Source: a virus (lineage: Duplodnaviria; Heunggongvirae; Uroviricota; Caudoviricetes). From it: 4,888 nucleotides of DNA. Position numbers and translations under genes: made by a program. This document shows, piece after piece, positions 2,951-3,319 of this stretch. A model generated the notes under the pieces. That model was not told where the DNA came from and did no database searches. It saw only the letters and a program-made list of their open reading frames with translations. The stretch lies in the IMG/VR virus record IMGVR_UViG_2667527898_000022. One strand, written 5' to 3'. Numbering within the stretch: the stretch's first letter is position 1; each line of letters starts with the position of its first letter.

Positions 2951-2963
2951 AGATTTTCCCCAT

Positions 2964-2998
2964 AAAAAAAACCGCAGTGCCGGTTTCCCGGTCTGCGG
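2964..2998 (-). terminator. Rho-independent terminator on the minus strand: GC-rich hairpin (2972-2998) followed by U8 (plus-strand A-run 2964-2971), 11-13 nt upstream of the fibre start codon
   Basis: Pairs 2972-2977 with 2993-2998 and 2980-2983 with 2988-2991 (10 bp, 9 GC, small internal loop, tttc loop). Minus-strand RNA reads ...ccggcacugcgg uuuuuuuu aug ggg aaa aucu AUG. Confidence 0.6.
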
Positions 2999-3265
2999 TA
3001 AAAATCGTGGTTTACAGGATTAAAAAGGTGCTATCCGGAACCGGAATTCACACAGTGAACGGTGGGTGATCCAGATAATGAGCACTACAGTGATACAAAT
3101 CACGGTGGTTTTTGCGACACAGCACTTGCTCCTTATTACGGAGAGGCGCTAACCTGCCACTTGCTTAAGATAGACGGATCAGGGCCTCGGGTTAACATTG
3201 AAGTTGACTCGGGGCCTTTTCACATCAGGCTTTCAGGTGTTCCCTCCGGCCATCAGCCAAAGGCA

Positions 3266-3288
3266 CCCGCGCATACTGTGCGGTTTTT
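3266..3288 (+). terminator. weak terminator-like hairpin on the plus strand in the J-stf spacer (6-bp stem with one G-U, 5-nt loop, then T5)
   Basis: 3267-3272 pairs with 3278-3283; T-run 3284-3288. No flanking plus-strand gene, so it would terminate an unannotated small plus-strand transcript, if real. Confidence 0.25.
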
Positions 3289-3319
3289 GTCTCCTTCCGG
3301 CAATCACGATCGTCCGGGA

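Follow-up and report, generated by a model that had tools for sequence, protein, structure and literature searches.

The window, that is, the whole stretch of 4,888 nucleotides analysed here, carries every one of its genes on the minus strand. The 3' part of J, the tail-tip/host-specificity gene (annotated as gpJ in the homologous loci L001-L004, L006 and L007), occupies positions 3320..4888 and ends with a TAA codon at 3322-3320. Downstream lies a fibre gene (1508..2963 including its RBS region; ATG at 2950-2948) that encodes 480 amino acids with a collagen-like region and whose counterparts in relatives are annotated as 'prophage tail fiber N-terminal domain-containing protein'. Its RBS region, AUGGGGAAAAUCU, is found at 2963-2951, just 5' of the ATG. 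As a preliminary description of this DNA had stated, a spacer of exactly 369 bp (2951-3319) separates the stop codon of J from the ATG of the fibre gene. The GC content of the spacer (50.7%) is close to those of the J part (53.4%) and tfa (51.9%; fibre gene, 59.9%), so it does not show the deviant base composition of many morons. The description was also right that lom, the gene found in this slot in lambda, is missing: between J and the fibre gene of the window there is no lom-like ORF (~200-aa beta-barrel), and blastn of the spacer against the lom segment of L006, the closest relative that has lom, detected no DNA similarity, for which reason we rejected a lom remnant. The best match to the window as a whole had 95.9% identity over 82% of its length, and the full source prophage was absent among complete E. 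coli genomes.

Megablast searches with the spacer retrieved matches in 124 E. coli genomes, annotated as 'Hok/Gef family protein'. The closest known counterpart is an intact cassette encoding a 46-aa HokA-like protein (e.g., WP_042022545.1 and WP_000078857.1, both labelled 'Hok/Gef family protein' by PGAP), present in E. coli lambdoid prophages and in the Stx phage 1720a-02 at the same locus and with the same flanks, promoter, tac element, Sok-like gene, terminator and fibre RBS. The DNA identity between the window and these intact J-fibre cassettes is 87-94%. In the window, an ORF of 27 codons on the minus strand (3020..3103; MICITVVLIIWITHRSLCEFRFRIAPF) matches the Pfam family HOK_GEF (PF01848) with 25.9 bits (gathering score 22) over profile positions 9-30 of 42, compared with 41 bits and positions 8-42 of 42 for the intact 46-aa relatives. 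Of Hok it retains the transmembrane segment, together with the SLCEFR motif, and lacks the N-terminal 9 and the C-terminal 14 amino acids. With the NCBIfam models it scored far under the cut-offs (25 bits for the Hok family, 18.9 bits for HokA), under which the intact relatives also fall, and PADLOC gave no match for either the intact Hok or the remnant. The earlier statement that the spacer contains no convincing ORF consequently holds for long ORFs but not for this short one, which exceeds the HOK_GEF gathering score. In the genomes with an identical spacer, PGAP predicts only a 21-aa 'hypothetical protein', which is a fragment of Hok. Two plus-strand ORFs of 41 and 30 codons had no Pfam match, were not conserved and were discarded.

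Alignment with the intact J-fibre cassettes revealed four lesions that, in this comparison, only the window copy carries: a T>C change in the -10 box of the hok-type promoter, the replacement of the ATG start codon by GTG and two deletions, one of 10 bp that shifts the frame and one of 103 bp. The former translation start (3100..3134, minus strand) still has its own Shine-Dalgarno sequence (AAGGAG, 3134-3129), followed by the GTG at 3120-3118. The 10-bp deletion (site at 3107..3114, AAAAACCGTT, between AAAAACC repeats) shifts the hok frame after codon 4 and, because of it, the ORF behind the Shine-Dalgarno sequence now has only 6 codons (MSQKPP*). Outside the window, this deletion was found only in the two E. 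coli genomes with a 100%-identical spacer (H2 and H3). The 103-bp deletion, with its junction at 3027..3038, occurred between 9-bp repeats (CCGGATAGC and CCGGATGGC) and took the C-terminal end of Hok, the GC hairpin 3' of its stop codon and the fbi element except for 5 nt (GCACC). Behind the Shine-Dalgarno sequence, the window has no intact toxin ORF (about 46-55 aa) that could be translated, and the locus is a pseudogene; the suspicion that the spacer contains a decayed gene was well founded, the gene being part of a hok/sok-type cassette. A conserved mok-like leader ORF that overlaps hok and has a start codon was found neither in the window nor in the intact relatives. Such ORFs are hard to call (10.1101/2025.08.07.668861). 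The lack of mok is a difference of the 46-aa subfamily, which does not follow the textbook R1-type hok/mok/sok organization.

Upstream of the toxin remnant, a hok-type promoter can be recognized at 3275..3303 on the minus strand (-35 TTGCCG at 3303-3298, 17-nt spacer, -10 CACAGT at 3280-3275). The -10 box of the window lineage carries the T>C change, where relatives have TACAGT, TAGATT, TACATT or TAGAAT. The offset of this promoter from the conserved GGGTGCC 5' end is identical in all nine loci aligned, and this conservation is the ground on which its activity is predicted. The expected transcription start is G3268 and the mRNA remnant would span 305 nt (2964..3268, bounded by the 5' end of tac and the U-run), compared with 408-417 nt predicted for the intact relatives, all these ends being deduced by homology to the hok architecture. 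The hok leader and Sok-target region (3109..3268, minus strand) was matched on the hok-sense strand by the Rfam model RF01794 (sok) over its full length (1-157) with 32.5 bits (E 1.2e-4); this is significant and yet below the gathering score of 59, as are the 46-52 bits (E about 1e-8) of the intact relatives. The tac element at the 5' end (GGGUGCCUUU..., 3235..3268) is predicted to fold differently in the two kinds of cassettes. In the minimum free energy folds of intact copies (L003, L004, L010 and L011), tac nucleotides 1-12 pair with nucleotides about 340-355, which correspond to fbi, whereas in the window and in a relative with the 103-bp deletion (L002), where fbi is reduced to GCACC, this long-range pairing is lost and the same nucleotides pair with nucleotides 20-34 in a local hairpin. 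A simple terminator scan listed a further hairpin on the plus strand (3267-3283), which is probably accidental as it depends on the T>C change specific to the window.

On the opposite strand, the cassette contains a Sok-like antisense gene that looks intact. Its promoter (3126..3155, plus strand; -35 TTGCTC at 3126-3131, -10 TAACCT at 3150-3155) is kept in all nine cassette copies, although with an 18-nt spacer in the window and a 17-nt spacer in the intact copies, and its position matches that of the R1 sok promoter. The predicted RNA of about 59 nt (3162..3220) would consist of a single-stranded 5' tail of ~19 nt, a 16-bp hairpin (3181-3218) and a U-run (3217-3220), an architecture that is alike in all 9 loci. 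The hairpin is strand-specific, with a folding energy of -26.8 kcal/mol and a z of -5.4 on the plus strand, compared with -12.9 kcal/mol and a z of -1.6 on the minus strand. In the stem alignment, 97% of the stem cells are paired, with an invariant U-G wobble and only one-sided changes; there are no double compensatory changes, and the upper stem cannot be aligned in register. In its 5' tail, the window copy departs at several positions from the other subtypes.

The spacer ends with an intrinsic terminator on the minus strand (2964..2999), composed of a hairpin (2999-2971) and U8 (2971-2964), with the sequence A2999-CCGCAG-A-CCGG-GAAA-CCGG-CA-CUGCGG-U2971, then U8. The hairpin alone has a predicted energy of -18.7 kcal/mol and its 60-nt context of -22.5 kcal/mol (z = -4.15), a stability that none of 200 shuffled sequences equalled. 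The folding thus agrees with the preliminary description, which had announced a strong terminator on the strand of the tail operon directly before the fibre ATG, although the distance between the two is 13 nt (2963-2951) and not 11 nt. The simple scan had not listed this hairpin because of the internal loop in its stem. Across the relatives, the position opposite the bulge is G-C, G-U, A-U or A.C, and the terminator is kept in all J-fibre hok cassettes, decayed or intact. Homology to the lom-bearing locus restarts within its 3' arm, at 2977; upstream of this point, lambda lom and its terminator have no sequence similarity to the spacer. In lambda, lom, which encodes an outer-membrane beta-barrel protein and not a toxin-antitoxin pair of type I, fills this slot, with J on one side and the side-tail-fibre gene stf (orf-401) on the other, and is followed by a hairpin (AGCCCGCCGGAACCGGUGGGCU) plus U6 (T6) located 14 nt 5' of the stf ATG, with a fibre RBS (GUGGGGUGAAUAUG) similar to that of the window (AUGGGGAAAAUCUAUG). 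The sister prophage L006 has lom, a hairpin plus U8 (T8) and the same RBS, with 13 nt to the same fibre start. Since lambda and the sister prophage both have a similarly placed terminator after lom, the terminator is a generic feature of the J-stf slot, and the succession of terminator and stf is the same as in lambda.

The comparison of related prophages, which the preliminary description had suggested in order to see whether lom was deleted here, also clarified the fate of this gene: synteny shows that it was replaced and not deleted in place. On one J/fibre backbone, the slot is occupied by lom (L006), by the intact hok cassette (L003, L004 and L005), by the allele with the 103-bp deletion (L002), by the window allele or by a mini remnant of 93 nt (L007), and in the nearest relative of the backbone it holds lom with another terminator, after which comes the same RBS. 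Intact cassettes were detected in 235 of the 5426 complete genomes, near full length in 119 of them. The window allele, with a 100% identical spacer, occurs in 2/5426, and a still smaller hok remnant without Sok, the commonest decayed form, fills the J-fibre slot in 29 genomes. Single genomes contain up to 5 copies of the cassette family, which is also found in islands, in P2-like prophages (downstream of ogr) and in VT2-Sakai (downstream of lom). Morons come with a promoter and a terminator of their own in the sense of Juhala and Hendrix (PMC3594210). The cassette is present or absent at one slot among otherwise closely related phages, and it has a promoter of its own, predicted from conservation, and a predicted factor-independent terminator.

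Several features relate these cassettes to the hok/mok/sok (parB) system of plasmid R1, namely the homology of the toxin to Hok/Gef proteins, a leader found by the Rfam sok model, the predicted 5'-3' closure by tac and fbi in the intact relatives and an antisense RNA that is short, has a single-stranded tail and a terminator hairpin and is made from a promoter overlapping the region where toxin translation starts. In R1, tac/fbi closure, 3' processing and the action of Sok have been characterized (PMC9841398). The differences are a longer R1 toxin, of 52 aa (PMC8621323) or 55 aa (10.1101/2025.08.07.668861) compared with 46 aa, a mok-like overlapping ORF not found in the phage cassettes, their scores under the Rfam gathering threshold and their location in a prophage tail region and not on a plasmid; in addition, the window copy appears non-functional as a toxin gene. 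Enrichment of hok in prophages has been described (bioRxiv 10.1101/2025.08.07.668861), and the only phage hok locus with experimental work that we found in the literature is hokW-sokW of Sp5, a prophage-borne type I system of the hok/sok family. It is toxic, sokW represses it, and with it twice as many phages are released upon induction (Takada et al. 2021, PMC8621323). We rejected hokW-sokW as a direct homologue because HokW has 51 aa and starts with MKQQKAM (primer YO-357, PMC8621323); hokW is neither in the J-fibre slot nor the 46-aa ORF that follows lom in the same phage. The latter, an intact and unnamed hok ORF that in VT2-Sakai (Sp5) and 933W-like Stx phages comes directly after lom and is labelled 'MokW-like host killing' in RefSeq, has 65% amino acid identity with the intact relatives over all 46 residues and shares with them the GGGTGCCTTT 5' end, the Shine-Dalgarno sequence, the C-terminal AAFLQCKQ and the lom neighbourhood. 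It differs from the window locus in adjoining lom instead of replacing it and in belonging to short-tailed Stx phages. Damaged hok copies that persist after inactivation of the toxin have a parallel in the chromosome of E. coli K-12, where Pedersen and Gerdes reportedly described inactivated hok loci in 1999. The damage there is said to consist mostly of IS insertions and rearrangements, in contrast to the two short-repeat deletions and point changes of the window copy. A preprint on the Pas sRNA concerns other prophage regions and not the J-stf slot, and is not relevant here.

Taken together, these data make it very probable that the spacer is a degraded type I toxin-antitoxin cassette of the hok/sok family, inserted as a moron in the J-stf slot where lambda has lom. 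The intact cassette would start with its own promoter directly 3' of the J stop and produce an mRNA of ~415 nt, with the 5' tac paired to the 3' fbi, coding for the 46-aa HokA-like membrane toxin; a Sok-like antisense RNA of ~59 nt would be made from the opposite strand, and the terminator would abut the fibre RBS. In the window, the four lesions have most likely abolished toxicity, with no apparent damage to the Sok-like gene or the terminator. The terminator would end a hok-type transcript started at the cassette's own promoter after J, so that in the lysogen it may halt such transcripts before the fibre and chaperone genes and act as an insulator. The lambda late operon is transcribed by a Q-modified, terminator-resistant polymerase, and during lytic growth a polymerase modified in this way would pass the terminator, by analogy with the equivalent terminator after lom in lambda. 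The finding is an ordinary one, a known kind of insert in decay.

The preliminary description had favoured another reading, in which the spacer is the 3'UTR of J and the terminator both generates a small RNA derived from it and gates the expression of the fibre and chaperone genes. This reading correctly takes into account that late transcripts must read through a strong terminator, since it is on the same strand as the tail operon and directly before the fibre RBS; however, such read-through is the normal lambdoid condition and nothing special to this phage. Moreover, the 350 nt from the J stop to the terminator include a conserved promoter and a hok-type 5' end, the same terminator is found in all J-fibre hok loci and lom is followed by similarly placed ones in both the sister prophage and lambda, and the best-supported RNA gene, that of the Sok-like antisense RNA, is on the plus strand. 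We therefore consider a J 3'UTR-derived small RNA very unlikely. A peptide that is shortened and still active seems even harder to accept. It would be the 27-aa product of the ORF at 3103-3020, translated by re-initiation at the GTGA overlap, where the TGA of the 6-codon ORF, which keeps the strong Shine-Dalgarno sequence, overlaps the GTG of the remnant. Despite its transmembrane segment and SLCEFR motif, this peptide has neither the charged N-terminus nor any of the C-terminal part, and the -10 box upstream is weakened; in R1, Hok toxicity is abolished by premature stops, a C-terminal tag or a C-terminal extension (PMC9841398), and truncated Hok is non-toxic (10.1101/2025.08.07.668861). The idea that the longest ORF of the spacer, with 92 codons on the plus strand (3062-3340), is a genuine gene, with the resemblance to hok being incidental, is scarcely credible: it has no Pfam match, its frame is broken in the intact relatives, no frame conservation with synonymous-biased substitutions was seen across relatives, and it overlaps the J stop and runs antisense to the conserved hok leader.

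It has also to be considered whether the remnant is retained for a function in trans, with the orphan Sok-like RNA, the non-coding hok-leader RNA or both acting on related intact hok cassettes in anti-addiction or cross-talk. The contrast between an undamaged Sok-like promoter, tail and hairpin and a toxin gene with four lesions is in line with this idea, as is the number of cassette copies that can coexist in one genome. Against it, the commonest decayed form has lost Sok altogether, the window allele is rare among complete genomes, the Sok promoter has a spacer of 18 instead of 17 nt, and the 5' tail of the RNA deviates from the other subtypes. Action in trans hence appears improbable, though less so than the readings discussed above.

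As a degraded hok/sok cassette, the spacer has mainly annotation value: it should be labelled as a hok/sok pseudogene whose Sok-like gene is possibly still live and not as an empty 3'UTR. Similar care is needed in VT2-Sakai, where a second, different hok locus follows lom and is easily confused with the published hokW in annotation. The J-stf slot behaves as a swap site in which one backbone carries, in alternation, lom, intact hok or hok at one of several stages of decay, with a terminator always left directly before the fibre RBS, whichever the occupant. Its alleles offer a tidy natural series for studying the death of toxin cassettes in prophages. There is also an outside chance that the degenerate J-fibre cassettes are not inert and that the orphan Sok-like RNA, the hok-leader RNA of ~305 nt and the tac/fbi hairpin RNA of ~93 nt from the mini allele act in trans on the intact paralogues present alongside them in many E. 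coli, with the terminator retained in every allele as an insulator of the fibre genes. If so, RNAs from degenerate hok cassettes would mediate anti-addiction or cross-regulation between prophages.

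The ORF survey placed all coding sequence of the window on the minus strand, where the stop codon of the J-type ORF (TAA, 3322-3320) and the ATG (2950-2948) of a collagen-like tail-fibre ORF of 480 aa (1508-2950) delimit a spacer of 369 bp (2951-3319), as given in the preliminary description. The absence of lom and the coding-like GC content reported there also held, with no lom-like ORF in the spacer and 50.7% GC, near that of the adjoining genes. The fibre protein contains several long Gly-X-Y runs, and its gene is followed by a tail-fibre assembly ORF of 197 aa (1496-903, minus strand). 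The tail-fibre module is mosaic, since genomes that carry the identical spacer have a different 3' half of the fibre gene and a different assembly gene.

The spacer very probably represents a dead cassette of the hok/sok type. The sole Rfam match in the whole window was the sok family (RF01794; 3268-3109, minus strand), over the full model length; its 32.5 bits (E = 1.2e-4) fall short of the gathering score, 59. When 5,426 complete E. coli genomes were searched by megablast with the spacer, 124 contained matches, nearly all labelled 'Hok/Gef family protein' and flanked by gpJ on one side and by a gene labelled 'prophage tail fiber N-terminal domain' on the other; the same search in a phage collection gave one match, Stx phage 1720a-02, with identical arrangement. 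The protein of the intact relatives (46 aa, MSQKPLKTTVICITVVLIIWTTHSSLCEFRFRIAGAEIAAFLQCKQ) matched Pfam HOK_GEF with 41 bits (gathering score 22) and had HokA as its top NCBIfam match, under the model cut-off. What is left of it in the window is a fragment of 27 codons (3103-3020, minus strand; MICITVVLIIWITHRSLCEFRFRIAPF), which still scored 25.9 bits against the same Pfam profile (gathering score 22) over positions 9-30 of 42 only. The intact form of the cassette is already annotated by PGAP. Decayed hok loci were reportedly described in E. coli K-12 by Pedersen and Gerdes in 1999. The enrichment of hok/sok loci in prophages is also known (10.1101/2025.08.07.668861).

The decayed gene suspected in the preliminary description thus turned out to be a hok/sok-type remnant with four lesions, which we read from an alignment of the window copy with an intact J-fibre cassette (L003), the intermediate allele of strain M3 and other copies. 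Two are shared with M3: the start codon has changed from ATG to GTG (3120-3118, minus strand), and 103 bp between CCGGATAGC and CCGGATGGC are deleted (junction 3038-3030, minus strand). Lost with these 103 bp are the 14 C-terminal codons, the GC hairpin that followed the stop codon and the greater part of the 3' fold-back element (fbi). The other two are specific to the window lineage or allele: the hok -10 box begins with C in place of T (CACAGT for TACAGT, 3280-3275, minus strand), and there is a 10-bp deletion of AAAAACCGTT between AAAAACC repeats (~3107-3114, minus strand) that leaves a 6-codon ORF, MSQKPP*, behind the Shine-Dalgarno sequence (SD) AAGGAG. This distribution points to the start-codon change and the large deletion having come first and the frameshift and promoter change later. 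The TGA of the 6-codon ORF overlaps the GTG of the 27-codon remnant (GTGA; 3100-3103, minus strand), an arrangement that could permit termination-reinitiation. Over the hok -10/+1 region, the plus strand shows a terminator-like hairpin (CCGCGCAUACUGUGCGG followed by U5, 3267-3283), well paired solely through the window-specific T>C change and mismatched at that position in relatives; it is probably accidental.

The cassette family was present in 235 of the 5,426 E. coli genomes, near full length in 119. Four carried the allele with the 103-bp deletion alone and two, LZSFT34 and NCTC9112, the doubly deleted allele of the window, with a spacer 100% identical in both. A mini remnant occupies 50 places, spread over 29 genomes with no more than 4 in any of them (98-100% identity), and retains just the hok promoter, the 5' end of the hok mRNA (tac) fused to fbi, and the terminator; its spacer measures 184 bp and its predicted RNA 93 nt. 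In the J-fibre slot of E. coli G6/7 (L007 3527-3712), for example, the hok promoter is followed by GGGUGCCUUUGACUGA fused to CGGCACCC, forming a tac/fbi hairpin, and then by the same terminator.

The predicted hok-type transcripts, taken to run from the conserved GGGUGCCUUU at their 5' end to the U-run of the terminator, are 408-417 nt long for intact copies; that of the window is 305 nt. Minimum free energy (MFE) folds of all four intact copies (L003, L004, L010 and L011, the last two being 46-aa cassettes from the 79-85% identity range of the genome search) paired nt 1-12 with nt ~340-355. This pairing is the closure of tac onto fbi by which hok mRNAs are defined, a mechanism described previously (PMC9841398). 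In the window and M3, GCACC is all that remains of fbi; in their MFE structures, the 5' end pairs locally, with nt 20-34. An ORF search found no mok-like ORF overlapping hok in this 46-aa subfamily, a real difference from the R1 hok/sok paradigm. A predicted plus-strand promoter (TTGCTC, TAACCT) is present in all copies, its two boxes 17 nt apart, or 18 nt apart for the window and M3. Downstream of this promoter (3126-3155 in the window) lies a predicted RNA of ~58-60 nt (~3162-3220, plus strand) with an unstructured tail of ~19 nt, then a long hairpin (3181-3218) and a U-run. The hairpin folds with -26.8 kcal/mol (z -5.4) on the plus strand and -12.9 kcal/mol (z -1.6) on the minus strand, where three G-U pairs turn into A.C mismatches. 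The outer stem is paired in 97% of its cells across seven non-identical sequences, with one invariant U-G; the changes are one-sided only, so that covariation evidence is weak. The Rfam sok match detects the leader and Sok-target region on the hok-sense strand; the Sok-like RNA corresponds to the opposite strand of a portion of this region.

These RNAs bear on the proposal that the spacer yields a small RNA derived from the J 3'UTR, which is unsupported: the RNA that stops at the terminator starts from a predicted promoter of its own, located downstream of the J stop, and the small RNA gene best supported by sequence and structure, the Sok-like one, lies on the opposite strand. The terminator itself (2999-2964, minus strand; 5'-UUUUUA-CCGCAG-A-CCGG-GAAA-CCGG-CA-CUGCGG-UUUUUUUU-3') is as strong as had been described, with -18.7 kcal/mol for the hairpin alone and -22.5 kcal/mol in a 60-nt context (z = -4.15; 0/200 shuffles equal), and lies on the tail-operon strand; a consensus terminator scan missed it because of its internal loop. 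Its U-run is separated from the fibre ATG by 13 nt (AUGGGGAAAAUCU), not 11. That fibre expression depends on read-through is a reasonable inference, but it is nothing special, being the condition of lambda, where lom is followed by AGCCCGCCGGAACCGGUGGGCU and U6, 14 nt upstream of the ATG of stf (orf-401).

The synteny comparison, run as suggested, showed that in the relatives nearest to the window as a whole, which are 96-97% identical in J and fibre, the same slot holds lom, then a different hairpin (AGCCCGUGGCGUCACUGCUGCGGGCU and U8) and the same AUGGGAGAAAUCUAUG; similarity to the window resumes at 2977, within the terminator 3' arm. The terminators of these relatives, lambda and the hok cassettes, where one is kept at every decay stage, indicate that a terminator right before the fibre ribosome-binding site is the ordinary state of the slot, whatever the insert. 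Elsewhere, the tac-to-fbi core of the 46-aa hok cassette occurs immediately after ogr at P2-like prophage ends (L008 2519-2659; L010 2375-2515), in chromosomal islands (L009, L011) and, in VT2-Sakai and some 138 further Stx phage records, right behind lom. The cassette moves between unrelated phage types. The segments 3' of fbi differ among L008-L011, with a hairpin and T-run recognisable in L010 and L011 only; at these other sites the terminator follows fbi wherever one is recognisable. The copy of VT2-Sakai/Sp5 is an unannotated 46-aa hok ORF with the full tac-SD-fbi layout (L012 1501-1641, phage VT2-Sakai 44701-44841), distinct from the published hokW (51 aa, MKQQKAM...); the RefSeq label of this ORF in sister phages, 'MokW-like host killing', invites confusion of the two. 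With its predicted promoter and terminator, the J-fibre cassette matches the definition of a moron, an optional insert carrying both (PMC3594210).

Outside the spacer, an AT-rich non-coding stretch (110-902, 39.6% GC) separates the stop of the assembly gene (tfa) from the start of a YadA-like gene. It contains two diverged units of ~125 nt (483-606 and 660-782, plus strand) sharing a perfect 16-nt repeat (TACGAAAATTCTGTAT, at 483 and 660), the first ending in a hairpin with T6 (578-599, plus strand), and a further plus-strand hairpin with T7 (878-895) faces the tfa 3' end. The Rfam scan gave no match within 110-902 and the counterpart in relatives bears no annotated feature; these elements could be small plus-strand transcription units. 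The gene start running off the window (1-95, minus strand; MSKKFTKTVLSTALAGVFLGISFGG...) is signal-peptide-like by eye and corresponds in relatives to a 'YadA C-terminal domain-containing protein'; it looks like trimeric-autotransporter cargo downstream of the tail-fibre module.

An intact copy would act like R1 hok/sok, in which the toxin mRNA is stable and kept closed by its own folding, and an antisense RNA that turns over quickly blocks the activated mRNA and makes it unstable. Within a prophage, such a cassette could help to retain the prophage, to exclude other phages or to time lysis; a role in lysis timing has been demonstrated for a different locus, hokW-sokW of Sp5 (PMC8621323). Judging from its lesions, the window copy cannot make full-length toxin; R1 Hok loses its toxicity through premature stops, and likewise when its C-terminus is tagged or extended (PMC9841398; 10.1101/2025.08.07.668861). 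The Sok-like gene, undamaged in sequence, may still be functional. An action in trans of the surviving Sok-like RNA or leader remnants on co-resident intact cassettes seems improbable; the commonest remnant has lost Sok, which speaks against a general selection for such an action. The lambdoid late operon is transcribed by a Q-modified, terminator-resistant polymerase; the window does not extend to the Q region. The terminator may also still function; in lysogens it would keep transcripts from the cassette promoter out of stf/tfa, and antitermination would override it during lytic growth.
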